Origin: an uncultured Thermodesulfobacteriota bacterium
Lineage (GTDB): Bacteria; Desulfobacterota; Desulfomonilia; UBA1062
Reading direction: 5' to 3'
Length of the DNA: 64,000 bases
Assembly (NCBI GenBank): GCA_942491525.1
Contig: CALOBW010000030.1
Location: 157,156 to 221,155 of the forward strand
Positions 1,943 through 49,541 of this stretch are shown in pieces (within the stretch, counting starts at the first letter, position 1; each line of letters opens with the position of its first letter). Under the pieces are notes generated by a model. The model was given only the letters and a program-made list of their open reading frames with translations. It did not search any database and had not been told where the DNA came from. Position numbers and translations under genes: made by a program.

Positions 1943-2464
1943 TTCAAGTTCAACTTGATGCAGGGCCCGGTTCAGATCGCGCTGGATCTTTTGCATACGC
2001 GGGCCCTGCTGGCCAAACTTTTCCATGACAGGATCCCACTCGCGGCTTTTGAACTTGCTCTGACTGAGCTGTGTGATACGGGTCTGCAGCCAGACATACT
2101 CCTGGGACTGGTAGCGCAACTCCTCCTCATCCGCATCCCACCACTGGAAGTTTAACCAGGCGCTTAAGGATGGCCCGCGCGGTATGCGGCCGTTCTGAGC
2201 CAGATACTCATAGCGCCGGTCGGCCCGCTCGATGAGCGCCACCTGCAGATCGCGCTGCTCCTTGAGCAAGGGCTCGGAGTCGGGCAGTTCAGATACCAGC
2301 AATTCATAGATCTGATCCTGATAGCTGATCTTGGCCAGACTGGCCCTCTGGCGCAGGGGGTCGCTGACACGCTGCTGGATCTTGTCCGGGATGACAAGCT
2401 CGGGTTCGGCCGGCTCGGAGCAGGCCAGTAACAGGAGGGGCAGGAGTAGGATTAGTTTGCGCAT
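1934..2464 (-). CDS. Hypothetical lipoprotein
   Basis: MRK + hydrophobic stretch + LLLAC lipobox. TAAAAT lies 7 nt upstream of the ATG with no SD (leaderless-like). Confidence 0.75.
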   Translation of the reverse strand: MRKLILLLPLLLLACSEPAEPELVIPDKIQQRVSDPLRQRASLAKISYQDQIYELLVSELPDSEPLLKEQRDLQVALIERADRRYEYLAQNGRIPRGPSLSAWLNFQWWDADEEELRYQSQEYVWLQTRITQLSQSKFKSREWDPVMEKFGQQGPRMQKIQRDLNRALHQVELELK

Positions 2465-2503
2465 GGTGGGTATTTTACAGGATTTATCTGTTTGGGGATA
2501 GAT

Positions 2504-2552
2504 GTCATTCCCGCGCAGGCGGGAATCCAGCGGCTTAAAGACACTGGATTCC
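2504..2552. repeat. Truncated REP/dRS3-like palindromic element
   Basis: GTCATTCCCGCGCAGGCGGGAATCCAG (ATTCCC-N8-GGGAAT core) ... CTGGATTCC; the right arm stops abruptly. Confidence 0.6.
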
Positions 2553-2609
2553 GAGTTGGGGCTGAACTGACGGGGTGTTTAACGCTATTTAACGTAAATA
2601 ATACTAACA

Positions 2610-4019
2610 TTAACCATACAACCGCTTAAACTCATCTATTGCAAATGAATCGGTCATACCTGCGAGGTGGTCACAAATTCCTCTTAATAATGCAATTTGA
2701 AAATTCTTATCTTGCCTATAAGACACTGAATCTATGGAATTTCTCATATCACCTAACTGTTTTGATTCAACATTAAGATTACTTACCATTTCAGGATCAT
2801 ACATTTTGAATACATATGTAATTGTTGAATCATGCAACTGCCTAGGATTCGTTAAATACGCTTTGAACAATCTACGAATTACAAATTTTCCTTTCCCGTC
2901 CATTCGCTGCGCGTCAAAAGAATTCAGAATACGATTACGCAAGAATTCTTGAAAATTCTTCTCATTCTTTTCAAATTCAGTTTCATAGCTAATCAGGCTA
3001 TTAATGTCACAATAATTAATGCCTATATATTTCTGAGCAAAATCTTCTTTAGAAGAAATCGAATTGTCCTTTATAAATTTATTCAGATTAGATGACGAAT
3101 TCAAAATCAAGTTCTTATTCAAGAAGTGGACTATAAACTTAGACATTTGGGGGAGGAAGAATACCAACTCTCTCTTTGACATTAATTCTGTAAATAGTTT
3201 CTCATCTTCATAATCAAAATGATTACTAAATCGTTCGTCAATCTCGTTTAATAATTCGTCCCGGTCAATTATTTTCATATACAAAGCATCTTCAATATCA
3301 TGATGCCGCTGAGCAATCTCATCTGCAATCTTAACTACATCAGCCTCAAATGACCACGCTGGACTAACGCTGTCTGCCAACAGAGAACCTTTGTATTTAT
3401 CATAAAATCCAAGATCACGAAGTCCGACGCAATCCTGGGGATTCAATTTACTGTAGCATTGACCATCACCCTCGCCCTTGTTCTTACAATCGCCCCATGA
3501 ATCTCTGGTATGATTAACAACACCCCACAGCGTATAATTGGTTAAATTCAGCCCAAACGAATTATACCGTTGTTCTAATTCTGACAAAACTCGAATGCCC
3601 TGCCAATTATGCTTAAAACCCTTATCTTTATTCTTCATCTCTAGCTGGAATTCAGCCAACTTATCGCAGCCACACATTATTGAATTCAACGTTTGCTCGC
3701 CAACATGACCAAAAGGCGTATGTCCAACATCATGCGCCAATGCAATGGCTTCAGTTAAAATTTCATCTAGAGAAAGATTTCTTGCTGTAGTTCGTGCAAT
3801 CTGACTTACCTCTAGAGTATGAGTTAATCGTGTTCTAACATTGTCTGAAGATGAAACAAAAACCTGAGTTTTTCCGCTTAGCCGTCTAAATTCTTTTGAA
3901 TACAAAACTCTATCACGATCTCTTTCAAACTCAGTGCGATATGGTTTCGCTGCAACCATCTCTCTGGCATCACGTTTAGCAAATTTATCTGGAGCTCCTA
4001 AGTGATATTGAACATGCAT
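2610..4019 (-). CDS. dgt: Deoxyguanosinetriphosphate triphosphohydrolase (dGTPase), HD family, AT-rich
   Basis: FERDRDRVLYSKEFRRLSGKTQVF, RTRLTHTLEV, ALAHDVGHTPFGHVGE, ADEIAQRHHDIEDA and DHLAGMTDSFA. Confidence 0.92.
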   Translation of the reverse strand: MHVQYHLGAPDKFAKRDAREMVAAKPYRTEFERDRDRVLYSKEFRRLSGKTQVFVSSSDNVRTRLTHTLEVSQIARTTARNLSLDEILTEAIALAHDVGHTPFGHVGEQTLNSIMCGCDKLAEFQLEMKNKDKGFKHNWQGIRVLSELEQRYNSFGLNLTNYTLWGVVNHTRDSWGDCKNKGEGDGQCYSKLNPQDCVGLRDLGFYDKYKGSLLADSVSPAWSFEADVVKIADEIAQRHHDIEDALYMKIIDRDELLNEIDERFSNHFDYEDEKLFTELMSKRELVFFLPQMSKFIVHFLNKNLILNSSSNLNKFIKDNSISSKEDFAQKYIGINYCDINSLISYETEFEKNEKNFQEFLRNRILNSFDAQRMDGKGKFVIRRLFKAYLTNPRQLHDSTITYVFKMYDPEMVSNLNVESKQLGDMRNSIDSVSYRQDKNFQIALLRGICDHLAGMTDSFAIDEFKRLYG

Positions 4020-4032
4020 TTCAAATCCCTCC

Positions 4033-4302
4033 TTATTCAGAAATATTTACAACAACATTTGAAACTCCAACAAAGTTAATGTTTCCATCCGGCGGACAAC
4101 AAACCCGACACCCCCGATACCCAGCCGCCCGCGCCTCGGCCGGACTAGCAAAAACAAGCCGATTCTCAGGATAGATCTTCTGCGCCCAGCGGCAGGATGG
4201 ATAGTGATAGACATCAGATTTGCGGGAGCCCCAGAACTCAGCCGCCAGGGCGCCGCTTACCAGCAGCAGGATCAACAGGAACGTCAGACAGGCCTTGCGC
4301 AT
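4033..4302 (-). CDS. Secreted Ada metal-binding (Zn) domain protein
   Basis: Signal peptide, then FWGSRKSDVYHYPSC...EARAAGYRGCRVC; ends in an AT-rich 18-aa tail. Confidence 0.8.
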   Translation of the reverse strand: MRKACLTFLLILLLVSGALAAEFWGSRKSDVYHYPSCRWAQKIYPENRLVFASPAEARAAGYRGCRVCCPPDGNINFVGVSNVVVNISE

Positions 4303-4337
4303 ACAACTCCCCCTTAAGGACGAGTCTCAATATGCAC

Positions 4338-4384
4338 AACCTAGCATAGATTTCACCGGCGTGTAAGTATCCGAAAGGATACCT
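4338..4384 (-). promoter_or_regulatory. Promoter of the Ada-domain/dgt unit with upstream palindrome GTATCC-GAAA-GGATAC
   Basis: Minus-strand TTACAC-17-TAGGTT with TG extension; the palindrome at 4367-4382 abuts the -35 box. Confidence 0.5.
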
Positions 4385-4470
4385 GCACCCCGGCCGCGGA
4401 CCGGCAAAAGCACAGCACGATTGACCAAACCTCACGCTTGAAGTATTTCTGCTAATCAGGAGTCAAGCAA

Positions 4471-5199
4471 ATGCATGAGAGCGAACCACAGAAGATTGCC
4501 CGCGAACTTGAGCTGGCGATCTTCAAGGGCGAATTAAAACCCCACAGCCGTTTCCCCTCCGAGCGCACTCTGGCTGAGCGTTACCGCGTCAGCCGGCCGG
4601 TGGTGCGTGAGGCCATCACGCACCTGACCCAGCTGGGGCTGGTCAAATCGGTCCCCAAGAGCGGCACATTTGTAACCGATTACCAGTCGGCCGCCTCACT
4701 GGAACTGCTGGTCCACATCATGCAGACCACCGAAGAGATTGATTCCACCATTATCCTGTCACTCTTGCGCACACGCCGCATGATCGCGCCCTTTGTGGCT
4801 TTTGAGGTTGCCAAGGTCATCAGCGCCGAGGATCTGCGCGCCATGCAGCAGGCCGGCCAGAAGCTGATTGCCAGCCTCAATAATCCGGAGGCCGTCTCCG
4901 AGGCTGACTTCAATTTTCACTTTAGCCTTTTTGAGATAATGAACGATCTGATCACCAAGTTGATCTACAATGCGGTCAAACCAATTTACCGCCACTACAC
5001 CGATTATTACTATCAGCTGGACGGCACCAAGGCCGCCACCACCACCTTCGTCAACGAGCTATTGGACGCCCTGGCCAAACATGATGCACCAACGGCCCGG
5101 CAGGTTATGGATGATGCCGTCCTCTACGCCGAAAACCGTTTAATCACCAGCCTCAAGCTTACCGAGCAAGAGCGTTCCATCAACCTCAGGACCGGCTGA
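4471..5199 (+). CDS. GntR-family (FadR subfamily) regulator
   Basis: PSERTLAERYRVSRPVVREA wHTH plus FCD-like C-terminal domain. Confidence 0.93.
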   Translation: MHESEPQKIARELELAIFKGELKPHSRFPSERTLAERYRVSRPVVREAITHLTQLGLVKSVPKSGTFVTDYQSAASLELLVHIMQTTEEIDSTIILSLLRTRRMIAPFVAFEVAKVISAEDLRAMQQAGQKLIASLNNPEAVSEADFNFHFSLFEIMNDLITKLIYNAVKPIYRHYTDYYYQLDGTKAATTTFVNELLDALAKHDAPTARQVMDDAVLYAENRLITSLKLTEQERSINLRTG

Positions 5200-5266
5200 C
5201 CTCCGCCTGTCTCCAAAGTACAACTCATTCCTTAAAACAGCCGCCGCAGATTCCTCTGGTCCGGAA

Positions 5267-5326
5267 TCTGGCCTTACCAGATTGCACTTGACAACCCCGT
5301 GCGAGCCGGCGTACTGGTAAGACCAG
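5267..5326 (+). promoter_or_regulatory. Methyltransferase-operon promoter with two FadR-type operators
   Basis: TCTGGCCTTACCAGA (5267-5281) and CTGGTAAGACCAG (5314-5326) flank TTGACA (5288-5293); both resemble the PdhR/LldR-type TGGT-N3-ACCA box. Confidence 0.7.
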
Positions 5327-5366
5327 ATACATTGATTATTCTATATTTGACTTATTGGAGGAAGAT

Positions 5367-6536
5367 ATGAACCCAACCGAACGAATTCTCAGAACCATGG
5401 AGGGTAAACCGGTTGACCGGATACCCACATTCTGCGCCGGCCTTGAGGAGCGCACCGTTTTCGAGGTTCTGGGGCAGCCCCTGATCCAGACCAAGACCAC
5501 CCTCGCCAACCCCGTCACCCAGGCGCTCCTGAACAAATGGGGGCCCCAGATGACGAAACCCTTCGTGCAGCCGGCCATCACCAGCGGCATGGACAAGCGC
5601 ATCAAGGCCGCCGCCCAGCTGGGATTTGACGCGACCTGGGCCCTCTACGATGAAACCTTTATCGTCCTGGACGCCAAGAACATGGCCCGCTACACCGGCG
5701 CCCTCTTTGAGATGCAGGATGACGGCTACGGCAACATGACCTACATGTACAAGGGCCCGGGCATCACCAGCCGCGCAGAGTTTGAAGCCTGGCCCTACTG
5801 GCCCGACGCCGACGCGGTCGCCCAGCGCGCCTACAAATTTTTCAAGAAAATGCTGGCGCGTTATGGCGATCAAATCTGCTTTTGCGGCCAGGCCTCAGCC
5901 TACGGCATCCAGGAGTCGCTGCTCTGGACCATCGGCTTCGAAAAGGTGCCCTTCTGGATCCGCAAGGAGAAAGATCTGGTGGAACGCTTCATCGCCATGG
6001 CCGAGGAGCTCTGCCTGAAAACATCGCTGGCCATGCTGGATGCGGGCGTCGAGATCATCCTGCAGTCGGATGATTTCGCATTCAAGACCGGCCCCATGAT
6101 GAACCCCAAAATGATCGATCAGCTCTTCGGACCCTCCTACCGGCGCATCATCAAGGCCGTCCATGATCGCGGCGGCAAATATATCCTGCACTCCTGCGGT
6201 GACAACACGGTGCTCTTCGACACCCTGATCGACTGGGGCGTCGACGGCCTGCATGCCTATGAGAACACCTCCACGGTCGACATCTTCAAGCAAAAGGAGG
6301 TGCACGGCGATCGCGTCACCATGATCGGCGGCGTCGGCATCGACTACCTGCTGACGGAGCGCTCCCGCGATGAAGAGGTTGTGGAGATGGTGCAGCAGCT
6401 GATCAAAAAGATGGGCCCGGGCGGCCGTTACCTGCTGGGACCAATCCACGGCATGAGCAACATGCCGGCCGCCAAGCTGAAAGTGATGATCGAGGCCTGC
6501 CACAAATATGGCAGCTACCCTATCAATTTAAACTAA
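5367..6536 (+). CDS. UroD-fold (MtaA/CmuA-like) corrinoid methyltransferase 1
   Basis: GGAGG RBS places the start at 5367. IILQSDDFAFKTGPMM, YILHSCGD, MIGGVG and YLLGPIH are typical of the URO-D family. Confidence 0.85.
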   Translation: MNPTERILRTMEGKPVDRIPTFCAGLEERTVFEVLGQPLIQTKTTLANPVTQALLNKWGPQMTKPFVQPAITSGMDKRIKAAAQLGFDATWALYDETFIVLDAKNMARYTGALFEMQDDGYGNMTYMYKGPGITSRAEFEAWPYWPDADAVAQRAYKFFKKMLARYGDQICFCGQASAYGIQESLLWTIGFEKVPFWIRKEKDLVERFIAMAEELCLKTSLAMLDAGVEIILQSDDFAFKTGPMMNPKMIDQLFGPSYRRIIKAVHDRGGKYILHSCGDNTVLFDTLIDWGVDGLHAYENTSTVDIFKQKEVHGDRVTMIGGVGIDYLLTERSRDEEVVEMVQQLIKKMGPGGRYLLGPIHGMSNMPAAKLKVMIEACHKYGSYPINLN

Positions 6537-6547
6537 CGGAGGATAGC

Positions 6548-7192
6548 ATGATCAATTCAATTGACGCCGTCATCAAGGCTATTGATGAACTGGACTTTGA
6601 CAATATCGAGCAGGTTGTGCAGCTATGCCTGGATGAGGGCCTCTCGCCCCTGAGCATTATTCAGGACGGAGTCTGCAAAGGTCTGGATGTGGTCGGCGAA
6701 AAATTTAACAGCGGCGAATATTTCCTGGCCGACCTGGTCATGGCGGGTGAGATCGTGAATGAGATCATGCCCACCCTCAAAGCCCGCATCAACCCGGCCG
6801 AAGTTGTCAATAAGGGCAAGGTGGTCATGGCCACGGTCCAGGGCGACATCCATGAGATCGGCAAAAACATTGTCTGCATGCTGTTGGATGCCAACGGCTT
6901 CGACGTGATCGACCTGGGCGTCGACGTGCCCACCGCGCGCATTGTCAGCGCCGTCAAAGAGAGCGGCGCACGCCTGGTGGGACTATCCTGCCTGCTGAGC
7001 ACCATGGTGGACAGCATTGGCGATGTGGTCAGAACCCTGCAGAGCGAAGGCCTCAGGGAGCGCGTCAGCGTCTTCATCGGCGGCGCCTGCACCTCGGAGC
7101 AGCTTAAAGATGAGATGGGTGCCGATGTCTATACCGCCACGGCGGTGGATGCCGTCAAGATGTTCGCCCAGCTGAGCGAGAGCATGGCATGA
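6548..7192 (+). CDS. Methyltransferase cognate corrinoid (B12-binding) protein
   Basis: N-terminal cap (GEYFLADLVMAG), DxHxxG motif (VQGDIHEIGKNIV), VGLSCLL and IGG. Confidence 0.95.
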   Translation: MINSIDAVIKAIDELDFDNIEQVVQLCLDEGLSPLSIIQDGVCKGLDVVGEKFNSGEYFLADLVMAGEIVNEIMPTLKARINPAEVVNKGKVVMATVQGDIHEIGKNIVCMLLDANGFDVIDLGVDVPTARIVSAVKESGARLVGLSCLLSTMVDSIGDVVRTLQSEGLRERVSVFIGGACTSEQLKDEMGADVYTATAVDAVKMFAQLSESMA

Positions 7193-8118
7193 ACCTGATT
7201 GCGCCGTTAGGAACGGCCATGGGCATCAACCTGATCGGGGCTGCGCCGCAGGACGCCATCTTCAAGCCGACAGTGCAGGCCGAAGCCGTCGCCGCCTTCA
7301 GCCAGCGCTTCCCGGCCATCGAGCTGGTCTATAGCCTGATGGACACCTCCATCGAGGCGCGCGCCCTGGGCTGCGCCTATGAATTCAAGGGCCGGGTGCC
7401 GGCCATCAGCAATCATCCGGGCGCGTTCGGCCCTCTGCCGGACCCCTGGCAGAGCGAGCCCATGCGCGTCAACCTTGAGGCCGTGACGCTGATCCGCGCC
7501 CAGACAGACAAACCGCTGGTCTCCTACGTGGTGGGGCCGGTGACGCTGGCGGCCCACATCTATGGCATCACCCCCCTGATCATGCTCTCGCGGCGCAACA
7601 AGGCCGAGTTTGAAAATGTGCTGCAGCAGGCCTGCGCCGTCATCAAGCCCTATGCCCGGGCCCTCTGCGCGGCGGGTGCCGACTATATCGTCATTCTGGA
7701 GCCCCAGGCCCTGATCTTTGCGCCGCAGGCCTACAGCAGCCAGATCGCCGGGACCATCGCCGAGCTGACAGCCCAGATCCCCCAGGCGGTGCTGCATGTC
7801 TGCGGCGACACAACCCCCCACGCCCAGGCGCTGGCGGCGACGGCCAACATTAAAGCGCTCAGCCTGGACTGGCAGGTTGATTTCAGCAGCATAACGCCCC
7901 CGGCAGGGGTGTCCCTGATGGGCAACATCGATCCGGTGGCGCTGCTGCAGAACGGCTCACCCCAGGAGATCCACAACGCCGTGACCAGCCTCCTGGAGAG
8001 CATGCAGGGCCGCGACTTCATCCTGGCCACCGGCTGCGACATGGTGCCGGACACCCCACCCGAGAACCTGGACAGCTTTATCGACGCCGCCCTGGAGTGG
8101 CGCACCCGGCGCGGATGA
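7189..8118 (+). CDS. UroD-fold methyltransferase 2 (MtaA/MtbA-like Zn-thiol motif)
   Basis: VLHVCGD ... LMGNIDP ... ILATGCD gives H-X-C-X77-C; ATGA overlap with the upstream gene. Confidence 0.85.
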   Translation: MNLIAPLGTAMGINLIGAAPQDAIFKPTVQAEAVAAFSQRFPAIELVYSLMDTSIEARALGCAYEFKGRVPAISNHPGAFGPLPDPWQSEPMRVNLEAVTLIRAQTDKPLVSYVVGPVTLAAHIYGITPLIMLSRRNKAEFENVLQQACAVIKPYARALCAAGADYIVILEPQALIFAPQAYSSQIAGTIAELTAQIPQAVLHVCGDTTPHAQALAATANIKALSLDWQVDFSSITPPAGVSLMGNIDPVALLQNGSPQEIHNAVTSLLESMQGRDFILATGCDMVPDTPPENLDSFIDAALEWRTRRG

Positions 8119-9482
8119 AAACTTGCCGGCTCAGCCTCTCTGACGGCAGCAGCGCCAATTTTGCCGCCGGCACACGGCTGGCCGATGCCTTGCTGGAGAT
8201 GGGCATCGGGCTCGAGACGGCCTGCGGTGGCCGCGGCAGCTGCGGCAAATGCCGCGTTGAGGTCAGGGCTGAGACCACCACAAGCGTACCCAGACTGGCC
8301 TGCCAGACATATCTGGATGGTGACCTGACGGTAGCGCTGCACGCCCGGCGCCAGCAGGCGCAAGATCCCCCCCCTGCCGCCAGCCGCGCGGCCATCGATA
8401 TCGGCACCACCACCATCAAACTGAGCTTTGACGACGGGACCGAAAAAACATATCTCAATCCCCAGCGCCGCTACGGACATGATGTCATCTCGCGCATCCG
8501 GGCGGCCCGCGCGCCCGAAGCAGCCCGCCACATGCAGAGCCTGATCAACCAGACCCTCGCCAGCGCCATGCGCGGCGCTGAGATTGAGCAGATCGCCATC
8601 AGCGCCAACACCACCATGCTCTACCTGCTGCTGGGGCTCGACACCGCCCCCCTGGGCCGGGCACCGTTTAAGCCTCCGCTGACAGATTTCGGCAGCCTGA
8701 ATATCGACAGGACGACAATCTTGCCAGTCGTCGACGCATTTATCGGCGCCGATCTGGTGGGCGGGCTAGCCCTGCTGCACGAGAGCGGCCCCGGCACGCT
8801 GTTTGTCGATCTGGGCACCAATGGCGAAATGTTTGTGATCGATAAGGCGGGCCGCATCTTGGCCACCTCCTGCGCCATGGGCCCCGCCCTGGAGGGCATG
8901 AACATCAGCTGCGGCATGACAGCCACCCCGGGGGCCATCAGCCATATCAGCCATGATTGGCAATATGAAACCATCGGCGGCGGCGCGCCGGCCGGCCTCA
9001 GCGGCACCGGCCTGATTGATCTGCTGGCCAATCTGCTGCGGCACGATATCATTGATACGACCGGGCGCATCCGCCCAGACGGCCAGCTGCCTGACCAGGT
9101 CAGACGGATGGACCATGGCCTGCGCCTCTTTGACCAGATCAGTCTGAGCCAGGCCGATATCCGCAATTTCCAGTTGGCCAAGGCGGCCAGCCTGTGCGCC
9201 GCCGAACTGCTCGGACTGGATCAGATCGATAATGTCTACATTGCGGGAGCCTTCGGACAAAATCTCAACCTTGAAAATTTCAGACGGCTCAGATTCTTAC
9301 CAGCCCTGAGCGGCGCTAACTGGCACTATGCCGGCAACACCAGTCTTGCTGCCGCCCGATCCACCCTGAGCGAGCCTGGTTTCTATGGCCATGCCTGCGA
9401 ACTGCGCGACCGCATCGATACCGTCAACCTCTCGGCCTGCCCGTCGTTCCAGCAACACTTCATGCAGGCCTTGGCTTTTTAA
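8115..9482 (+). CDS. ASKHA-domain reductive activator of corrinoid proteins (RACo/RamA-like, DUF4445)
   Basis: N-terminal 2Fe-2S motif (CGGRGSCGKC...RLACQ), AIDIGTTT, VDLGTNGEM, GPALEG and YIAGAFG; ATG at 8115 overlaps the upstream TGA. Confidence 0.92.
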   Translation: MKTCRLSLSDGSSANFAAGTRLADALLEMGIGLETACGGRGSCGKCRVEVRAETTTSVPRLACQTYLDGDLTVALHARRQQAQDPPPAASRAAIDIGTTTIKLSFDDGTEKTYLNPQRRYGHDVISRIRAARAPEAARHMQSLINQTLASAMRGAEIEQIAISANTTMLYLLLGLDTAPLGRAPFKPPLTDFGSLNIDRTTILPVVDAFIGADLVGGLALLHESGPGTLFVDLGTNGEMFVIDKAGRILATSCAMGPALEGMNISCGMTATPGAISHISHDWQYETIGGGAPAGLSGTGLIDLLANLLRHDIIDTTGRIRPDGQLPDQVRRMDHGLRLFDQISLSQADIRNFQLAKAASLCAAELLGLDQIDNVYIAGAFGQNLNLENFRRLRFLPALSGANWHYAGNTSLAAARSTLSEPGFYGHACELRDRIDTVNLSACPSFQQHFMQALAF

Positions 9483-9491
9483 GGGGGAGTC

Positions 9492-10142
9492 ATGCCGATC
9501 TTTACCAACATTCCATTTAACCCGCAGACTGAGCAGCTCCAGACCCAATTGCGCATTCAACCGGGATCACGCCAGGAGGTTGATTTTAGGATGCTGCTGA
9601 GCGAAGCGCTGGCCGCAGCCAGACCCAAAGCGGTCTATCAGGCAGAGACCGTTGTCCGCGCAGACGGGCCCACCCTCGCTATCGGCGGCATCAAATTCAG
9701 CAGCGCCCTGCTGCATGAACAGCTGAGCCCGACGGTCTATCCGTTTGCCGCCACCTGCGGCCGTGAACTGGCCGAATTTTCCAAAACCCTGACCAGGCCG
9801 CTGCATAAGTTCTGGCTCGAATATATTCAGATCAGCGCCCTGAACAGCGCGACCCAATATCTGCAGGCGCAGCTTGCCGTGCCGGATCTGGCCTGCCTTA
9901 CGCCGGGATCACTGCCCCAGTGGAATCTTGAGCAGCTGCCGCTGATTTTTGAGCTGCTGGGCGACGCTCCGGCCGCGATTGGCATCCAGCTGATGCCCAA
10001 CTGTCTGATGAAACCGCTCAAATCTGTCAGCGGGATCTATTTCCGCTCAGCAGACAATTTCAGCAACTGCCGCAACTGTTCGCGTCTGGACTGCCCCACA
10101 CGTCAGGCACCCTACCAGGCGGCTGGATTTCCAGAAATTTGA
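9492..10142 (+). CDS. Stand-alone B12-dependent methionine synthase activation-like domain protein
   Basis: YPFAATCG, PGSLPQWNLEQ, MKPLKSVSGIYF and a terminal CRNCSRLDCPTR motif. Confidence 0.8.
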   Translation: MPIFTNIPFNPQTEQLQTQLRIQPGSRQEVDFRMLLSEALAAARPKAVYQAETVVRADGPTLAIGGIKFSSALLHEQLSPTVYPFAATCGRELAEFSKTLTRPLHKFWLEYIQISALNSATQYLQAQLAVPDLACLTPGSLPQWNLEQLPLIFELLGDAPAAIGIQLMPNCLMKPLKSVSGIYFRSADNFSNCRNCSRLDCPTRQAPYQAAGFPEI

Positions 10143-10169
10143 GAGGCTCCCGGCTACAGCGGAATCAGG

Positions 10170-10565
10170 CTACCCCCAGCGGCGCTGCCGCCTTTTGCTC
10201 TCCAGCCAGCTATCAGCCTCGTCACGGCTGCGGAAGATCATATGTTCCCAGAGCATCTCGCCCAGGTGGGCCTGCCACATGCGGCCGAGGCCGTACTGCA
10301 GGTCGCTGGGCGCAATCACGGCCACCATCACGCCGGCCGCATGCTTGGACATCTGCTGATACTGTTCGGCCAAGAGCTGAATATTAAGGTCCGGAACCCG
10401 CATCTCAGCCACATCCGTATAGTCGGCCACGATGGTCGAAAAATTCATCAGCTGCTCCGGATGATTGAGTCGGCACTGGAATGAGTCATAGATCTCGGCG
10501 CTGGTCAGCACCCCGTAGTAGCGGATGGAAAGTCCGCCATCCGCATACACCACCTCGCACGGCAT
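10170..10565 (-). CDS. Hypothetical protein (STAS/SpoIIAA-like small alpha/beta fold)
   Basis: AVIAPSDLQYGLGRMWQ...IFRSRDEADSWL; upstream AGGAGG. Confidence 0.65.
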   Translation of the reverse strand: MPCEVVYADGGLSIRYYGVLTSAEIYDSFQCRLNHPEQLMNFSTIVADYTDVAEMRVPDLNIQLLAEQYQQMSKHAAGVMVAVIAPSDLQYGLGRMWQAHLGEMLWEHMIFRSRDEADSWLESKRRQRRWG

Positions 10566-10690
10566 AGGTATACCTCCTGATTATCAACTGCAGATCAATT
10601 CAGCGTGAGCAAAAATCAAAGGAGCGGCTTTCAGCATATCAGATCATAGACATCATCAGAAGTGCCAAAACAAAAATTTTCAAAATTTTG

Positions 10691-11035
10691 TCAAACCGCC
10701 GGCTCTTTCAGCTGATAGCGGTTGGGATCATTGAAGAAGGAGACATCGGCATAGCCGGCGTAGATCTTGCCGGAATGTCTGACGCCCAGCGGAATGTGGT
10801 ACTGGTCACCCTTGCGGTAGGTCTGCGACCGGCCGTCAATCACCAGATCGATACGCCCCTGCAACACAATACCGATCTGGGCGCAATGGGCATGGGCCGG
10901 CAGAGTTATATCCTTGGCAAACTGCATGAAGATGATCTGATGGTTCTCCGACTGGGAAACATAGGCCGTGATCCCGTCCAGCGGGATGTCGGCCTGGGGC
11001 AACTTGGTGATGGATTCAGGGAAGCAGCTGTTCAT
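10691..11035 (-). CDS. Cupin domain protein
   Basis: HAHCAQIGIVLQG...GDQYHIPLGVRHS two-motif cupin. Confidence 0.9.
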   Translation of the reverse strand: MNSCFPESITKLPQADIPLDGITAYVSQSENHQIIFMQFAKDITLPAHAHCAQIGIVLQGRIDLVIDGRSQTYRKGDQYHIPLGVRHSGKIYAGYADVSFFNDPNRYQLKEPAV

Positions 11036-11859
11036 AGTTCCCCATTAAAATCATGAATCCGGCGCGATGTCACGCCCACGATGTAGATCATCCAGAATAT
11101 CAACGTGATGTGCAGCACATCATTGGCCGAGAACCAGATGCCGCGCGCCCAGAGCTTCTCGGTGCAGCCGGCCAGAAAATAGCCGTAGTAGCAGACAATC
11201 ACCAGCCCCAGCCCCACCCAGGTGCCGATCTGGGCCGCATCCATGGAGAGCTTGTGGCGCGCATAACGCACCGCGTTCAGAACCACGAAGGCAATCACGC
11301 TGGGAGCCAGAAAGAGCAGCATCAGCTCAAAAGATATCATCAAGCGCTGGGGCAGATAGCAGCCCAGCAGCAGAACAAAAGTGTAGGTCAGCATGTTGGC
11401 CGCCGCATAGCCCAGCAGGCCGCGGCGCAGGCGGCCGCCGCTGCAGCAGTAGGCCTGACCGGCCATCATGGCGTTCAGGCTGCCGACCGACAGCAGCAGA
11501 TAGGCAATTTCCCAGTAGCTGGTCCAGACACAGTACTCACGGCCGGCGCACTTGAGCTCATAGCTGAAGATCTGATAGCTGGTGCCGGCCGAGAGCGCTC
11601 CCAGACCCCAGAGAATCAACGAGATGCCCCACCAGCGACGCGATTTCTGGCCCGCGGCAATCCGCAGAAAATGAATGCCGCAAATGATGGTTATGATGCC
11701 GAGAAAGTAGACGAAGAAGGTTGAGCTGGGCTCCATCAGCAGCCAGCTGCGGCCGAAGGCCTCGACCTCGACCCAGGGCATGCTGGTCAGCCACTCGTCA
11801 GGGGTGATCAACGGACGGTAGAGCAGAACTTCAAGATCAAACATTTCAGTCAATTGCAT
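11032..11859 (-). CDS. Uncharacterised multi-pass membrane protein (DUF6962-like)
   Basis: GGAGGAG RBS before ATG at 11859; about 7 hydrophobic segments; MEPSST and ANDVLH motifs. Confidence 0.65.
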   Translation of the reverse strand: MQLTEMFDLEVLLYRPLITPDEWLTSMPWVEVEAFGRSWLLMEPSSTFFVYFLGIITIICGIHFLRIAAGQKSRRWWGISLILWGLGALSAGTSYQIFSYELKCAGREYCVWTSYWEIAYLLLSVGSLNAMMAGQAYCCSGGRLRRGLLGYAAANMLTYTFVLLLGCYLPQRLMISFELMLLFLAPSVIAFVVLNAVRYARHKLSMDAAQIGTWVGLGLVIVCYYGYFLAGCTEKLWARGIWFSANDVLHITLIFWMIYIVGVTSRRIHDFNGEL

Positions 11860-33110: not shown

Positions 33111-33893
33111 ATGGAGAGCGTCAGAAAACACGGAGCCCCGCCCTATGCCGTGGCCCTGGTCCACGGCGGCCCCGGTGCGGCCGGCGAACTGGAGCTGCTG
33201 GCCGCACAGCTTGAAATCAGCTCGCTGGAGCCCATGCAGAGCGCCTGCTCCATCGAGGGTCAAATTCAGGAGCTGCACAGCCAGCTTAAGGGGCATACGC
33301 CGATTATTTTGCTGGGCTACTCCTGGGGCGCCTGGCTGAGCATGCTCTTTGCCGCCCGTTACCCGGACCTGGTTAGAAAGCTGATTTTAATCAGCTGCGC
33401 GCCGCTTGAGGACCGCTACGCCCACAAGATTCACCAGACCCGCATGCAGCGCCTCGACTCCGAGGAGCAGCACGAGGTCAAGGAGCTGCTGCACGACTTC
33501 AGGGCCCACAACAACCAGGCCGACTTCACCCGCCTGGGCACCCTGCTGCGCAGAGCCGACGCCTTCTGTCCCCTGCCCCACCACGACCAGATCGAATGCC
33601 GGATCGACATCTACCGCAAGATCTGGCCCGAAGCCGCCGACCTGCGCTGGAACGGCCAGCTGATCGAAACCCTCAAAAAAATCACCTGCCCCGTCGCCGC
33701 CATCCACGGGGCCTACGATCCCCACCCCTACATGGGCGTCAAGGAGCCGCTGGCCAGGATCAAACCGCAGGCCAAGTTCCACCTGCTCAACCAGTGCGGC
33801 CATAAGCCCTGGATTGAGAAACATGCCCCAACTTCTTTTAAGACAGCATCGCCCGCCTCATGCCCAAATCTATCATTGATAGATTTAAAATGA
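33111..33893 (+). CDS. Alpha/beta hydrolase with replaced C-terminus
   Basis: VHGGPG, GYSWG nucleophile, GAYD and CGH; the last ~20 aa are read from AT-rich foreign DNA. Confidence 0.8.
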   Translation: MESVRKHGAPPYAVALVHGGPGAAGELELLAAQLEISSLEPMQSACSIEGQIQELHSQLKGHTPIILLGYSWGAWLSMLFAARYPDLVRKLILISCAPLEDRYAHKIHQTRMQRLDSEEQHEVKELLHDFRAHNNQADFTRLGTLLRRADAFCPLPHHDQIECRIDIYRKIWPEAADLRWNGQLIETLKKITCPVAAIHGAYDPHPYMGVKEPLARIKPQAKFHLLNQCGHKPWIEKHAPTSFKTASPASCPNLSLIDLK

Positions 33894-34846
33894 TCGAGAT
33901 CGATATAGAGTATAGCAACTTTGCGGCCTTCGCGATTGACCATGGCCAATGCTTGAGTCAGACGGTCCTGAAAAAGGTTGCGATTAACTAACCCGGTCAG
34001 ACTATCAAAATGCGCCAGTTGCAGAATCTGTTTTTCTGCTTGAATACGAGCAGCTTCACTACGCGCCAATTTCACATAACCAAACCCTAGTCCCAGCAAT
34101 GCAACAAACCAGATTACTGAATGAGCAATGAAAATTGCACCATGCACTTCATTGTAATCTCTGTGGAAAAGTCTCACAGGCAAAGTTACACTAATTCCAC
34201 CACGCAGATCACCCTCGCTATATCCTTGAGATGCGTGACATTTCAGACAAGATTTATCCACCTTTAATGGCATCATCATCCTGAAATAATATTTACCGTC
34301 CTGTTTAATACGTTCACTATAGTCAAAGGCGCCCTGCTCAAGTATTAGCAATGCTTTTTTTTCCCAGTTATCCGCAATGTTTTCGGGATTAATCGGATTT
34401 AAGCTAGTTATATGCCCGCTGACTACATTGCGTTGCTGAGCAAGGTCATAAACCTGTCGCGTCATATATGCCGGATTAATCATTGTCAGTTCCAACTCCG
34501 GTGAAACCTGAATATCACGCAGAGAGACCATTTCTGGAGTCAAATAACTATTAGGTTGATTTTGAACAGTCACCGGAACATATACTCCGCCATGCAGGCT
34601 ATTCCAGAGACGGTAAAGTTTATCCCGTTCAATTGAAGTTCTGCCGATCTCCTCAATTATGTTGTTAATCTCACTTTCATGCTGAATATTGCTCAACGCC
34701 ATTGAGATTAACAGAAACACTGACCAACAGATTGCCATAACAAGTGTTATTTGTTTTATTTTCAGTCCTGCAACATTATGAGCCATACTGTTAATATAAA
34801 CTGCTCTATTATAAATAGAAGAGGCATCATTTGCTTGGCATTTCAA
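33728..34846 (-). pseudogene. DUF3365 (heme-c) sensor - GGDEF protein, 3'-truncated
   Basis: TM - LHGGVYV...MINPAYMTRQ...CLKCH - TM - HFDSLTGLVNR...IDLDHFKSINDRFGHEAGDAVLKEV, then antisense hydrolase sequence; the GGDEF motif is absent. Confidence 0.85.
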
Positions 34847-34900
34847 GAATCCATCCTTATAATGTAAACTTATAGAACTTAAAACTTAAGGAGATATCGG

Positions 34901-35305
34901 ATGCCTTTAATAAACTGGAGCGATGAGCTTAGTGTAGGTATTTCAGAAATTGATCAGCAGCATCAGAAACTAATCAAGATGATAAACGACCTGGCTGATG
35001 CCATGCGCCAAAGACAAGGGAAAGAGGCCGTCGATCCGATCCTGAAGGGCTTGCTGGACTACACTGTGACCCATTTCAAGAATGAAGAAAACTATTTCGC
35101 GAAATTTAACTATTCTGAGACTGATAGCCATAAAAAAGAACATGCTGTGTTTATAAGTAAAATTGCAGAATTTAAAAAAGATTTTGAGAATAACAAAATC
35201 GGACTGACAACCAACATCCTGAATTACCTAAGCGATTGGCTTAAGAATCATATTATGGGTACAGATAAAAAATATACCCAACTCTTTCATGATAACGGCT
35301 TATAA
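34901..35305 (+). CDS. Bacteriohemerythrin
   Basis: WSDELSVGISEIDQQH, HFKNEE, HKKEH and WLKNHIMGTD iron ligands. Confidence 0.95.
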   Translation: MPLINWSDELSVGISEIDQQHQKLIKMINDLADAMRQRQGKEAVDPILKGLLDYTVTHFKNEENYFAKFNYSETDSHKKEHAVFISKIAEFKKDFENNKIGLTTNILNYLSDWLKNHIMGTDKKYTQLFHDNGL

Positions 35306-35495
35306 TAAATTTCAGCCCCGCCAACATTAAGCTGTCGGGGTAATTTGTCATCTCTCCGGCCGTCAGGCCGTATAGCTATATCCCTCTTTAAAGCCAAAGC
35401 TAAATTCACCATATCTAGCCATTATCTACACTATCCAATCCTTCATATATCTAAGCCACTGGATACCCGCCTACGCGCACTACTGTCCGGAATAA

Positions 35496-35639
35496 TCAAA
35501 ATGGTAGCCTCGGTTGTAATTTTTCCAGTTGTCGCCTTGTTCGTCGGCGTTTATCGGCCAGGTAGGCTTCGGTGCGCATGCGCTGGAACAAGGTGCTCCT
35601 CAGGATTTCCAATCCTGTTCAGGCCGGTTGATGCCCATG

Positions 35640-35650
<11 letters not shown>
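35496..35650 (-). pseudogene. Frameshifted C-terminal fragment of an unidentified gene
   Basis: ...HMGINRPEQDW/EILRSTLFQRMRTEAYLADKRRRTRRQLEKLQPRLPF*, with a 1-nt frameshift and GC-rich coding-like sequence. Confidence 0.4.
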
Positions 35651-38004
<2,354 letters not shown>

Positions 38005-46217: not shown

Positions 46218-47072
46218 CTACTGCAGCCAGGCGTTAACCTTGGCTTCATTCTCTTTGATCCAGCGCCGCGCGGTCTCGGCAGGCTTGGCGCCGTCTTCCT
46301 GATTCCAGACCATGACGGTCTGCATGTCGGCCGGGCTCCACTCAAACTTATCGAGGAGGTTGTAGGCTTCAGGCATATCCTCCTTGAGGCCCTTGCGCAC
46401 GATGGTGTTGACGAACTCGGCTTCGCCGTAGATCAGTTTGGAATCCTCAAGATATTTGAGATCCCAGCGGGCAAACATCCAGTGGGGGGTCCAGCCGGTA
46501 ATTACGATCCACTCCTTGTTCTTAACGGCGTCCGCCAGGGCGGCGGTCATGGTGGCACCGGAGCCCTCCATGAGTTCCAGCTTGTCCAGGCCGTATTCGG
46601 CCAGAACCTTCTCGGTCTTGCTCATCAGGCCGGCGCCGGGGTCGATGCCGATGATCTTGCCCTTGAACTTGTCGGCGGATGCATTGAGCTCCTCGATGGA
46701 GTTGATCTCAACATAGGCCGGCACAACCAGGCCGATCTTGGTGCCGGTCAGGTTCGGCCCCAGATCCACAACCTTATCCTTGACACTGTCCAGGTAGTGG
46801 CCGTGGGTGGTCGGCAGCCAGGCGGCCACCAGTCCGTCAACATCACCGGTACCGACCGCCTGCCACATGGCGGCGGCGCTGACCGGCGTCAGTTCAACCT
46901 CATAGCCCAGCTTATCTTCAAGCACGGCAGCCACAACATTGGTGCTGGCAATTTCAGAGGCCCACTCCACATAGGTCAGCTCTATTTTCTTGACCTGGGC
47001 CGCATCCTTCTCGGCGCAACCCGCAATACCAAGCAGCATAACTGCCATGATGATTCCAAAAATTCTTTTCAT
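46218..47072 (-). CDS. proX: Glycine betaine/proline ABC substrate-binding lipoprotein
   Basis: IAGC lipobox, YVEWASE, AWLPTTH, IGIDPGAG and GWTPHWMF; start at 47072 after GAGGAG. Confidence 0.92.
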   Translation of the reverse strand: MKRIFGIIMAVMLLGIAGCAEKDAAQVKKIELTYVEWASEIASTNVVAAVLEDKLGYEVELTPVSAAAMWQAVGTGDVDGLVAAWLPTTHGHYLDSVKDKVVDLGPNLTGTKIGLVVPAYVEINSIEELNASADKFKGKIIGIDPGAGLMSKTEKVLAEYGLDKLELMEGSGATMTAALADAVKNKEWIVITGWTPHWMFARWDLKYLEDSKLIYGEAEFVNTIVRKGLKEDMPEAYNLLDKFEWSPADMQTVMVWNQEDGAKPAETARRWIKENEAKVNAWLQ

Positions 47073-47080
47073 AACTCCTC

Positions 47081-47911
47081 CTATTTTCTTTGTATTCTGA
47101 TGTTCTGTGTAATTCTGTCCAGAATGATGGCCACAATGACCACGGCGGTGCCGGCCTCGAAGCCGTTGCCGGGCTGGAAGCGCTGGATGGCTTTCCAAAC
47201 CTCACCACCTAAGCCCTTGGCGCCGATCATGGCTGCGATGACAACCATGGAGAGCGAGAGCATAATGGTCTGATTGATACCGGCCATGATGGTGGGACTG
47301 GCCATGGGCAGCTGCACCTTGATCAACTTCTGCCAGCGGGTGGCGCCAAACGAGTCGGCGGCCTCGATCATCTCTTCGGGCACCTGTTCAATGCCCAGAC
47401 AGGTCAGCCGGATGGCCGGCGGCATGGCAAATATGACGGTGGAAAAAATGGCCGCCACCGGGCCCAAGCCAAAGAATGGGATGGCCGGAATGAGATAGAC
47501 AAAGGCCGGCATGGTCTGCATGAAATCGAGGATCGGCATGATTATGCGCTTGGCATTCGGGCGCAGGGCGGCCCAGATGCCCAGGGGCATGCCGATCACA
47601 ACAGCCACGAGGGTGGCCAGGATGACCATGGCCAGGGTGCTGACCGTTGCGGGCCAGAGCTCAATATTCCAGATGAAGAGCAGGCCAAGCAGGGTGAAGA
47701 TGCCGATCTTGCGGCCGCTGTGCCACCAGGCCAGCGCTGCAAGCAGCACGATCATGATCAGGGGCGGCACAAAGAGGAAGGCATCCACGGTGGCATCGAT
47801 GCCGACCTCGGTCACGGCCGAGATGGCCTTGGTGGCCCCGGAAAGGTTCGTCGTCAGATAATCCAGGCCGGCCTCGATCCAATCGCCAAAGGGTATTCTA
47901 GGAATCTGCAT
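47081..47911 (-). CDS. proW: Glycine betaine/proline ABC permease
   Basis: LDFMQTMPAFVYLIP, EAADSFGATRWQ and MIGAKGLG. Confidence 0.95.
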   Translation of the reverse strand: MQIPRIPFGDWIEAGLDYLTTNLSGATKAISAVTEVGIDATVDAFLFVPPLIMIVLLAALAWWHSGRKIGIFTLLGLLFIWNIELWPATVSTLAMVILATLVAVVIGMPLGIWAALRPNAKRIIMPILDFMQTMPAFVYLIPAIPFFGLGPVAAIFSTVIFAMPPAIRLTCLGIEQVPEEMIEAADSFGATRWQKLIKVQLPMASPTIMAGINQTIMLSLSMVVIAAMIGAKGLGGEVWKAIQRFQPGNGFEAGTAVVIVAIILDRITQNIRIQRK

Positions 47912-47912
47912 C

Positions 47913-49100
47913 TTAATCTCCAATATTGGCGAGCCCGGCGATCAGACTGGTTCTGTCGATCACGCCAAGCAGTTTGTTGCTGTCGTTGACCACGGCCACC
48001 GGATAGTGCTGCTCCAGGGAGGTGGTGAAAATATCCTGGATGGGGGTATCGGGACTAACCTTCTCCACATCGCGGATAATAATGTCCGGCATGGTGCCGA
48101 CGCCCTGCTGCAGGGCCTCATAGGCATCATCAGCCAGGAAGACGCCGCGCAGTTTATGCTCCTTGTCGATCACATAGATATGCCCGAGGCCGGCGCCCTC
48201 CATCTTGCGCAGGATGGTGCGCGGCCCATCGCTCATGCGGGCCGTGGCCCACGGTTTCTTCATGACGCTCTCGGCGGTCAGAACCTTGGTCATATCCACA
48301 TCTTCAACAAACTTTTCAACATAGCGGGTGGCCGGATTGGTCAAAACCTCTTCCGGCGTGCCCTGCTGCACGATGCGGCCATCCTTCATCAGGATGATGC
48401 GGTCGCCCAGCTTGATAGCCTCATCCAGGTCGTGACTGATGAAGATGATGGTCTTGTTGACCCGCTCCTGCAACTCCATCAGCTCATCCTGCATCTCGCG
48501 GCGGATGAGCGGGTCCAGGGCGCTGAAGGCCTCATCCATCAGCAGAATCTCGGGATCGACGGCCAGAGCACGGGCCAGGCCGACGCGCTGCTGCATGCCG
48601 CCGGAGAGCTGATCAGGGTAGGAGTCTTCCCAGCCCTTAAGGCCGACCAGTTCGAGCGACTCCAGGGCCTTCGCCCGCCGCTCCTCCGGCTCAATGCCCT
48701 GGATTTCAAGACCGAACTCAGTGTTCTCCACCACGGTACGGTGCGGAAAGAGGGCAAAGTGCTGAAAAACCATGGCAAACTTTTCGCGCCTGAAGTCGCG
48801 CAGTTCATCACTGTCGAGCCTGGTGACATCGATCCCGTCGATGGTGATCTCACCGGACGTGGGCTCAATCAACCGATTGAGGCAGCGGATCAGAGTGGAC
48901 TTGCCGCTCCCGGAGAGACCCATGACCACGAGCAGCTCGCCCTCTTCAACTTCGAAGGTGACGCCACCGACGCCGACCGAGTGCCTGGTCTTTTTGAGAA
49001 TTGTTTCATTGGCGGCGCCGCCCTCAAGCATCTGCAATGCTTTCTGCGGGTGATCACCGAAAATTTTAACTAGATTATTAACTGCGATTTTGGTTGTCAT
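47913..49100 (-). CDS. proV: Glycine betaine/proline ABC ATPase with CBS pair
   Basis: GLSGSGKST, LSGGMQQRVGLARAL, MDEAFSALDPLIR and a C-terminal CBS pair. Confidence 0.96.
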   Translation of the reverse strand: MTTKIAVNNLVKIFGDHPQKALQMLEGGAANETILKKTRHSVGVGGVTFEVEEGELLVVMGLSGSGKSTLIRCLNRLIEPTSGEITIDGIDVTRLDSDELRDFRREKFAMVFQHFALFPHRTVVENTEFGLEIQGIEPEERRAKALESLELVGLKGWEDSYPDQLSGGMQQRVGLARALAVDPEILLMDEAFSALDPLIRREMQDELMELQERVNKTIIFISHDLDEAIKLGDRIILMKDGRIVQQGTPEEVLTNPATRYVEKFVEDVDMTKVLTAESVMKKPWATARMSDGPRTILRKMEGAGLGHIYVIDKEHKLRGVFLADDAYEALQQGVGTMPDIIIRDVEKVSPDTPIQDIFTTSLEQHYPVAVVNDSNKLLGVIDRTSLIAGLANIGD

Positions 49101-49146
49101 TTTTTAATTACCTGTTTTTTGCGTGTTAAGAGACTATTCATTTGAT

Positions 49147-49197
49147 GTGAATTTCTTGAATTTCACCCAACGTAACAAACCTCAATGACATTGTCAA
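49147..49197 (-). promoter_or_regulatory. proVWX sigma70 promoter with palindrome over +1
   Basis: TTGACA-17-TACGTT with TG extension; GTGAATTTC-TT-GAATTTCAC at 49147-49166. Confidence 0.65.
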
Positions 49198-49480
49198 ATC
49201 AGCCACCAATTCGCCACAATATGCTGTTTATAAACATGATACGATGAAAATCAGGAAGATTTACTCAACCCTCAACTGGGCATATCTATCTAAATTTAAT
49301 TATATAAACATCCGATTTAATGGATCAATAGGCCGTATTTTTTTTATTTAAAATTAAAATAGTGACACCAGTAAAATAAAATTCTAATTTCAATTAGTTA
49401 GATCAAAAACAAAAACAACTGATATTACATATAGTTACCTGCTACATTGTTTGCAAACACCAACTATAGATTTCTCAAAT

Positions 49481-49509
49481 TTGACAATTACTTCAAATTG
49501 CCGTACCAT
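49481..49509 (+). promoter_or_regulatory. ectABC sigma70 promoter
   Basis: TTGACA-17-TACCAT; implies a 5' leader of about 175 nt. Confidence 0.7.
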
Positions 49510-49541
49510 GAATCACCATTATGGAAGTTTTCAACTACTAC

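Follow-up and report, generated by a model that had tools for sequence, protein, structure and literature searches.

The operon described here raises the question of where a methyl group is delivered when a corrinoid protein is encoded together with two methyltransferases of the uroporphyrinogen decarboxylase (UroD) fold and no folate-methylating partner. It resides in an uncultured Thermodesulfobacteriota bacterium affiliated with the Desulfomonilia (assembly GCA_942491525.1, contig CALOBW010000030.1), from which a stretch of 64,000 nucleotides, termed the window throughout, was analysed (positions 157,156 to 221,155 of the contig). Five co-directional plus-strand genes spanning window positions 5367-10142 encode a divergent UroD-fold methyltransferase (MT1), a corrinoid protein (CP), a second UroD-type methyltransferase (MT2), a reductive activase (RACo) and a relative of the activation domain of methionine synthase MetH (ORF5). 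What emerges is a real, conserved and uncharacterised system. As judged from sequence, we give even chances to the reading that it is an inducible, self-contained shuttle, which would carry the methyl of a donor X-CH3 via the corrinoid to a thiol and not to tetrahydrofolate.

The genes are separated by 11, -4, -4 and 9 nt, and both overlaps, at the CP/MT2 and MT2/RACo junctions, consist of ATGA. Such tight spacing fits a single translationally coupled operon. A preliminary description of this DNA had reported the five genes and had suggested surveying their conservation. All were recovered at the same coordinates, on the plus strand and with matching domain identities, and the gene order was seen again in at least eight further contigs, a conserved synteny that rules out chance clustering. 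An upstream gene for a GntR/FCD regulator and a palindromic operator are additions to the five-gene description; together with the regulator, six same-strand genes fill positions 4471-10142. The domain identities across the operon genes are firm, except that ORF5 by itself scores below the cut-off of its family (Table 1).

The nature of MT2 points to a thiol as methyl acceptor. MtaA is its best structural relative (4AY7, E 5.4e-19), with the zinc ligands aligned: the triad His203-Cys205-Cys283, invariant in 23 sequences, coincides with two conserved MtaA motifs, H-x-C ('VLHICGN') and C ('APGC'). A recent preprint gives His-Cys-Cys as the signature of S-methyltransferases in the UroD superfamily (Kountz & Balskus, 2023; PMC10418091). 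The MT2 family is small (44 relatives). MT2 shares 28-29% identity with two MtaA-annotated proteins, the nearest named relative being annotated as MtaA from Methanolobus (28%), and it scores far under all curated cut-offs for MtaA, MtbA and CmuA (NF040654, 116.3 against 400; NF041608, 81.3 against 600; TIGR01463, 111.6 against 235.4; PRK06252, 124.4 against 244).

A second argument comes from related loci, surveyed by comparing the window proteins with 80 loci in tblastn and by inspecting contigs annotated with Pfam. MT1 and CP are always adjacent in these loci, RACo and ORF5 usually follow, and the core of MT1, CP, RACo and ORF5 is constant across about 35 crown-clade loci. What varies is a slot beside this core. 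MT2 lies between CP and RACo in nine loci (the window, L003, L006, L007, L011, L017, L023, L053 and L084), and a gene of family PF02574 is found either close upstream of MT1 or on the downstream side of ORF5 in 17 (L001, L004, L005, L009, L014, L015, L019, L020, L022, L025, L026, L028, L031, L034, L037, L056 and L062); no locus holds both. The PF02574 protein matches Thermotoga MetH (1Q7M) with E 4.9e-57 over residues 6-284 and keeps the Cys-containing MetH motifs 'NC' and 'GGCCGT', which identifies it as a predicted stand-alone MetH homocysteine-binding domain. Some loci from Spirochaetota and Smithella carry a more distant MtaA-like gene instead (26-31% identity). The thiol acceptor of the preliminary description is thus strengthened by the MT2 triad, by MtaA as best relative and by a MetH homocysteine domain that takes the place of MT2 in sister loci.

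The same description had noted the lack of a pterin-binding methyltransferase and proposed to look for one elsewhere. Such an enzyme is present neither in the operon nor in the 64-kb window, where none of about 60 open reading frames (ORFs) matched PF00809 in Pfam, nor does it recur in 85 related loci. The Fol domain of E. coli MetH found no tblastn match in the window or in these 85 loci, among which the cap/Cob and homocysteine domains of the same protein do match. PF00809 was likewise not recurrent among 87 flanking ORFs from 29 crown loci, a result that leaves room for a single occurrence.

These searches bear on a conventional catabolic demethylase, in which MT1, and perhaps also MT2 with another substrate, would load CP and a distant pterin methyltransferase would pass the methyl group to tetrahydrofolate, to be oxidised in the Wood-Ljungdahl pathway; O-demethylase, Cdm and Mtg systems follow this scheme. 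Many Desulfobacterota possess this pathway. Relatives of the operon occur in Desulfobacterota, no acceptor gene lies near some of the loci, 64 kb of the genome are visible, and the known bacterial systems pass the methyl group to tetrahydrofolate (PMC10418091, PMC13222342). We nevertheless hold this explanation to be unlikely, given that a pterin methyltransferase is absent from the window and does not recur beside the 29 crown loci or the 85 loci in total, and that the slot beside the core is filled by thiol-methylating modules. In characterised systems, moreover, the gene for the tetrahydrofolate methylase usually sits in the same cluster (PMC10418091).

The other end of the proposed route is MT1. 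Its likely start is the ATG at position 5367, preceded by a GGAGGA ribosome-binding site, and the mechanical ORF starts at a TTG at 5355. The matches in Pfam (PF01208 URO-D, E 1.5e-25, residues 194-385 only) and NCBIfam are partial, and with scores of 66.6, 46.0, 68.4 and 90.6 on NF040654, NF041608, TIGR01463 and PRK06252, respectively, the protein stays below every curated NCBIfam cut-off. All of its 254 close relatives (54-84% identity) stem from metagenomes or metagenome-assembled genomes (MAGs) and bear only the names 'uroporphyrinogen decarboxylase family' or 'hypothetical'. In a survey of 185,579 species genomes, the family was encountered in Desulfobacterota (Desulfobacterales, Desulfomonilia, Smithella), Spirochaetota, a few other bacterial phyla and Promethearchaeota (Asgard), and cultured isolates contributed none of its loci. 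When 1.84 billion representatives were scanned exhaustively with HMMER, the family formed one cluster at 50% identity (677 bits), the next full-length relatives reaching at most 284 bits; ten representative clusters among these nearest relatives are labelled only 'uroporphyrinogen decarboxylase' or 'hypothetical', and the sister family P0173 showed no corrinoid context.

In an AlphaFold (AF2) model of MT1 with a predicted local distance difference test score (pLDDT) of 90, the best fold in the PDB is MtaA (4AY7, Foldseek E 1e-17, TM 0.69/0.79), followed by UroDs and then, distantly, MetE. Identity to MtaA is about 24% over 186 residues, which is about half of MT1. The family profile matches MtaA with E 9.5e-10 and the O-demethylase-related CdmB (9RUI), the sole representative of its clade in this comparison, with E 0.093 (15 bits). 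Taken together, MT1 is predicted to form a separate, tight and unnamed lineage, nearer to MtaA than to CdmB by profile score and belonging to neither. Its invariant residues include H275-x-C277, E299 and H361 (23 sequences), and a profile-profile alignment with hhalign matches H275, C277 and H361 to the MtaA-like family's ligands, H-x-C and C. Invariance and mapping together predict a His275-Cys277-His361 metal site, to which Glu299 may be added. The corresponding site is His-Cys-Cys among S-methyltransferases (PMC10418091) and is reported to be carboxylate-substituted or metal-free in O-demethylases and CdmB (PMC10418091, PMC13222342).

Table 1. Positions in the window of the operon genes and of the associated regulatory features.
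Feature	Position	Strand	Basis or remark
GntR/FadR-type regulator (GntR helix-turn-helix and FCD ligand domain)	4471-5199	+	Pfam GntR E 2.4e-17, FCD E 4.6e-13
Two operator-like palindromes	5266-5328		ATCTGGCCTTACCAG at 5266-5280, CTGGTAAGACCAGAT at 5314-5328
MT1, divergent UroD-fold corrinoid methyltransferase, proposed substrate:Co(I) methyltransferase	5367-6536	+	389 aa
Corrinoid protein (cap and Rossmann B12 domain), methyl carrier	6548-7192	+	B12-binding_2 E 2e-16, B12-binding E 5e-24
MT2, MtaA-like UroD methyltransferase, proposed methyl-Co(III):thiol methyltransferase	7189-8118	+	URO-D E 2.3e-44
RACo/RamA-type ATP-dependent reductive activase	8115-9482	+	Pfam Fer2 ([2Fe-2S]), Raco_middle, RACo_C_ter (ASKHA), lowest E 2.7e-55
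ORF5, stand-alone MetH activation-domain relative, proposed corrinoid-reactivation accessory	9492-10142	+	Met_synt_B12 20.4 bits
Terminator-like GC hairpin with T-rich tail	10179-10201	+	Consensus scan and sequence; 37 nt past the ORF5 stop codon

We infer that MT1 is the donor-side enzyme because of its constant pairing with CP, comparable to MtaB with MtaC and MttB with MttC, and because of the expansion of its paralogues. Two or three tandem MT1 paralogues share one common CP in L027, L051, L055, L044 and L045, which suggests diversified donor specificity, and several MT1 loci can occur within one MAG. Three tandem copies, 49-62% identical to the MT1 of the window, were seen in L027 (8001-11508), L051 (791-4304) and L055 (about 8001-11509), and two in L044, L045, L050 and L060.

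The paralogues also bear on a scheme with reversed roles, as has been proposed for type 1 mlp clusters, in which MT2 or the PF02574 protein would demethylate a methyl-thioether, a methyl-selenoether or a sulfonium compound and MT1 would stand on the acceptor side. His-Cys-Cys enzymes such as MtsA run in both directions, which lends this scheme some support, as does the fact that MT1 is the most conserved component and its partners vary, which is the pattern of a generic acceptor enzyme. The methyl transfer from methionine to Co(I), that is the reverse of the MetH reaction, is thermodynamically unfavourable. An Mlp2 enzyme has been assayed with selenide (PMC10418091). We consider reversed roles quite improbable all the same: two or three copies of MT1 stand in tandem and several occur per genome, which would not be expected of a generic acceptor enzyme, the PF02574 protein closely resembles the MetH homocysteine domain and would have to run its reaction in the unfavourable direction, and a link to selenium finds no counterpart among the window ORFs, in which sel genes were not seen.

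Control of the operon likewise speaks to its function. A homologous GntR regulator is encoded directly upstream of MT1 in about ten related loci, and the GntR/FCD protein is the probable repressor of the operon. The two palindromes lie 40-100 nt upstream of MT1 and flank a TTGACA hexamer; they form an inverted repeat with 15-nt arms that are 93% complementary, and the downstream one encloses the FadR/GntR-type core TGGT-N3-ACCA. The same core precedes MT1 in the window and in eight distinct related loci with GntR. It was not found in two GntR loci (L003 and L053) nor in any of about 50 loci devoid of the regulator. Rfam models, those for S-adenosylmethionine (SAM) and cobalamin riboswitches included, had no match in the window or in nine SMT-type (PF02574) sister loci, and riboswitch control is rejected for these. 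The restriction of the operator to GntR-carrying loci and the lack of SAM and B12 riboswitches indicate regulation of the substrate type, and control looks ligand-responsive, as would befit an accessory pathway and not a housekeeping methionine synthase. The FCD domain suggests an inducer that bears a carboxylate. Scans for sigma-70 promoters and terminators gave scores no better than those of shuffled sequence, so that the hairpin behind ORF5 is weak evidence.

This mode of control is also relevant to a split methionine synthase, in which MT1 would be a non-homologous methyl-tetrahydrofolate:corrinoid methyltransferase of the UroD/MetE fold replacing the folate domain of MetH. With the sister loci taken into account, every MetH module except the folate domain has a counterpart, MetE, which binds methyl-folate, has the same fold and is among the Foldseek matches of MT1, and MT1 is very highly conserved. 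Tandem MT1 paralogues and GntR/operator control in place of a SAM or B12 riboswitch argue against it, and a UroD-type folate methyltransferase is not known (PMC10418091). Among the explanations considered, we regard this one as the most improbable.

Two of the remaining operon proteins, CP and ORF5, are reminiscent of MetH. CP scores 172 bits on TIGR02370, carries DxHxxG...SxL...GG, of which DxHxxG is the His-on motif, and is 32% identical to the cap/Cob region of E. coli MetH (E 1.9e-29). ORF5 taken alone reaches a Met_synt_B12 score under the cut-off of 25. PF02965 is matched by 18 of the 26 members of its family (best E 4.4e-7), no other Pfam family being matched, and the 26-member profile detects the stand-alone activation-domain protein TM0269 (1J6R, E 5e-6) and, weakly, MetH activation domains. 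A structure model based on five sequences (pLDDT 48) was too poor for fold comparison. Four cysteines are invariant in the family, C89 in an ATCG motif and the C-terminal C193-x2-C196-x4-C201, which suggests a metal or Fe-S site; we know of no such cysteine site in canonical MetH activation domains. The SAM-binding RxxxGY motif of MetH presumably corresponds to an N-P-G-S stretch in ORF5. The ATG of RACo overlaps the MT2 stop codon, and L081 is annotated with the same start. With 455 residues, RACo of the window is about 55 residues shorter than its homologues (502-522 aa). An identical operon occurs in a second public assembly (L082), in which the activase (3867-4817) is called with 316 residues and lacks the ferredoxin domain, perhaps a variant produced by assembly or by a frameshift.

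Combining these elements, we propose that in the absence of an inducer the GntR/FCD regulator would bind the TGGT-N3-ACCA operators and repress the operon. Once expressed, MT1 would move the methyl group from a small donor X-CH3 to the Co(I) corrinoid protein, as its pairing with CP and its paralogue expansion suggest. MT2, as an MtaA-type enzyme with a zinc triad, would then move it from CH3-Co(III) to a low-molecular-weight thiol; this type of acceptor is indicated by the ligand triad of MT2 and by the MetH homocysteine domain that replaces MT2 in sister loci, and would most likely be homocysteine, yielding methionine, or a similar thiol. By homology, RACo would re-reduce adventitious Co(II) at the expense of ATP with ORF5 assisting the repair. 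The product would be methionine in homocysteine-domain loci and methionine or another methyl thioether in the variant of the window. There is precedent for a corrinoid protein that connects a PF02574 homocysteine module with a substrate methyltransferase (PMC12478193), and reactivation of MetH by RamA-like proteins is known for Desulfovibrio MetH and for split MetH (PMC5764234). In the most economical model, the system would in effect be a disassembled MetH with the folate module replaced by a UroD-fold donor module: CP would parallel the cap/Cob region, ORF5 the activation domain, and the homocysteine domain or MT2 the homocysteine module.

Several points weigh against a thiol shuttle of this kind. 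The mutual exclusivity of MT2 and PF02574 is only modestly significant (0 loci seen with both and about 4 co-occurrences expected). The interleaving of the two locus types on the MT1 neighbour-joining tree, which is what interchangeable modules would give and speaks for the shuttle, comes from a tree without support values. Neither module is near the core in L013, L027 and L055. The high conservation of MT1 across phyla (55-84% identity), unmatched by the other components, could indicate a universal cofactor as substrate. The operon of the window has MT2 and no homocysteine domain, a PF02574 module not having been found anywhere in the window, so that its thiol may be a different one such as sulfide, mercaptopropionate or a compound resembling coenzyme M (CoM). 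A pterin methyltransferase may be encoded elsewhere in the genome, of which 64 kb, with 5.3 kb upstream of the operon, were seen.

Clusters of a related design are already on record. The mlp gene clusters (MGCs) described in the preprint by Kountz & Balskus are UroD-only corrinoid clusters without a tetrahydrofolate methylase, are linked to methyl-sulfur and methyl-selenium metabolism, occur in non-methanogenic anaerobes and are proposed to end on a thiol or methionine (PMC10418091). By the definition given there, the operon formally qualifies as an MGC: the component families are recognised by Pfam and NCBIfam (four genes), the genes run in one direction at spacings under 2 kb and are not interrupted by a divergent gene, and within 20 kb no homologue of a tetrahydrofolate methylase was found, 5.3 kb having been seen on the upstream side (PMC10418091). 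Type 1 MGCs, which comprise the Mlp2 and Mlp3 clades, are mostly from Firmicutes, and their SCMT-like Mlps each share about 30% identity with CoM methyltransferases, nearly all of them having His-Cys-Cys (PMC10418091). On this account only MT2 fits the type 1 description; MT1 differs by His-Cys-His, by extra beta-insertions and by its weak similarity to MtaA, and the last of these argues against membership in type 1. The MetH-activation-like gene, the GntR regulator and the alternation with a homocysteine domain are features not encountered in the accessible MGC description (PMC10418091). The term 'undescribed' in the preliminary description is therefore only partly right: the general idea of UroD-only, folate-methylase-free clusters was put forward in 2023 (PMC10418091).

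With the methanogen enzymes MtaA, MtbA and MtsA, MT2 shares the fold and the zinc triad, and the system as a whole shares the logic of passing the methyl group from an MT1 via a corrinoid protein to a thiol-methylating MT2. Unlike these systems with their MtaBC-type partners, the operon belongs to a bacterial host without a sign of CoM metabolism, and its donor enzyme is of the UroD fold and not of the MtaB or MttB type. O-demethylase and chloromethane systems of three or four components (MtvABC, OdmABCD, VdmABCD, MtoABCD, CdmBCA) also combine, in one operon, an MT1 of the UroD superfamily with a corrinoid protein and a RACo-type activase, and likewise employ paralogous MT1s for different donors. 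Those systems rely on a pterin-binding MTII forming methyl-tetrahydrofolate or methyl-tetrahydromethanopterin, which the operon lacks. The UroD fold of MT1, which the preliminary description set against MttB/MtaB-type MT1 enzymes, is shared by MtvB, OdmB, VdmB, MtoB and CdmB, whose MTIIs are of the pterin type (PMC13222342); the unusual feature is hence the missing pterin MTII and not the UroD-type MT1. MetH and split MetH, such as MtgCDE with MtgB in Phaeobacter and Ruegeria, resemble the operon in the cap/Cob module, the putative activation-domain relative and the RamA-like reactivase (PMC5764234, PMC12478193). Split MetH and the sister loci further have in common a stand-alone PF02574 module and, for the sister loci as a proposal, a corrinoid hub that joins demethylation to methionine synthesis. 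Mausz et al. described such a hub in aerobes for glycine betaine demethylation and methionine synthesis, in which the donor enzyme is of the MttB type and a pterin module is present (PMC12478193). The operon differs from MetH and split MetH in having no pterin module and a donor module of the UroD fold in place of the MttB type, and in that the variant of the window has an MtaA-like enzyme for the homocysteine domain.

Individual sister loci show further variation. In L005 (3551-12125), a Desulfomonilia MAG from peat, genes for a TetR regulator, a second CP, a second UroD methyltransferase, an Fe-S protein and the homocysteine domain precede MT1, CP, RACo and ORF5, and two donor modules seem to be served by one homocysteine module. 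A 663-residue hydantoinase-A-like (ASKHA) protein is encoded between ORF5 and the homocysteine-domain gene in a Desulfobacterales subgroup (L001, 7661-11092; also L004, L009 and L062), with a RidA gene next in order in L001. Cluster versions from Spirochaetota and Smithella feature a protein of 560-600 residues with a MutS domain V ATPase between CP and RACo (L041, 9870-11549; L044, 8058-9854; L045, 11085-12773). In L026 (9883-13543) the RACo frame runs on into a UbiA prenyltransferase domain (809-residue ORF), followed by a radical SAM/SPASM gene; this may be a true fusion, a frameshift or an artefact of ORF calling. The flanking genes vary, with enoyl-CoA hydratase, acyl-CoA ligases, TetR and Fe-S proteins each in a few loci. 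A conserved transporter was not found among the genes flanking the related loci, which suggests a donor that is permeant or endogenous.

The window encodes Omp85, AcrB, LysR, GntR and methyl-accepting chemotaxis (MCP) proteins and thus derives from a Gram-negative bacterium, in agreement with the non-methanogenic host of the preliminary description; this gene content rules out a methanogen origin. An OpuA-type glycine betaine ABC transporter (OpuAC binding protein, 46218-47198; permease, 47081-47923; CBS-domain ATPase, 47913-49100) is adjoined by ectABC (GNAT EctA, 49690-50238; class-III aminotransferase EctB, 50225-51505; ectoine synthase EctC, 51502-51894). These genes (46218-51894) indicate that the host is adapted to salt and probably marine. 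Immediately upstream of the GntR gene, a stretch with a GC content of 0.43 (2001-4302; about 0.59 for the window) encodes a dGTP triphosphohydrolase-like HD protein (2610-4019; 256 bits on TIGR01353, 193 bits on the anti-phage dGTPase model and thereby below its cut-off) and a small Ada_Zn_binding protein (4033-4302), and may represent an island gained by horizontal transfer. The region 33728-38004 includes another stretch of low GC content (34-36 kb, 0.43), which carries genes for a GGDEF/Tll0287-like protein and a hemerythrin (34901-35305) and is followed by one for a KatG-like catalase-peroxidase (35887-38004); these are oxygen-stress genes in a lineage with anaerobic relatives.

Corrinoid methyltransferase systems govern the entry of methyl groups into the anaerobic carbon and sulfur cycles, the sources being lignin methoxyls, osmolytes, methyl sulfides and halomethanes. 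Tetrahydrofolate receives the methyl group in those bacterial systems that are known; the MT1 family, which occurs in several phyla of anoxic sediments, joins a new, putatively donor-side lineage to thiol-methylating modules, one of them a bare MetH homocysteine domain. If the proposed function is correct, methyl groups of an environmental donor would reach methionine or methylated thiols directly, and a concrete operon with a likely ligand-responsive repressor would be at hand for identification of the donor. The 2023 idea of mlp clusters would be extended beyond Firmicutes (PMC10418091), and the corrinoid hub that catabolism and methionine synthesis were found in 2025 to share would be extended beyond aerobes (PMC12478193). 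We put forward only tentatively the further-reaching notion of a folate-independent system that forms methionine or methylates thiols with methyl groups drawn directly from an environmental or endogenous donor via the new UroD-fold His-Cys-His lineage. The gene set is widespread in Desulfobacterota, Spirochaetota and Asgard archaea of anoxic sediments, and should the acceptor of the MT2 variant be sulfide or a simple thiol, it may be the missing genetic basis on which methanethiol and dimethyl sulfide are formed anaerobically from methylated compounds.

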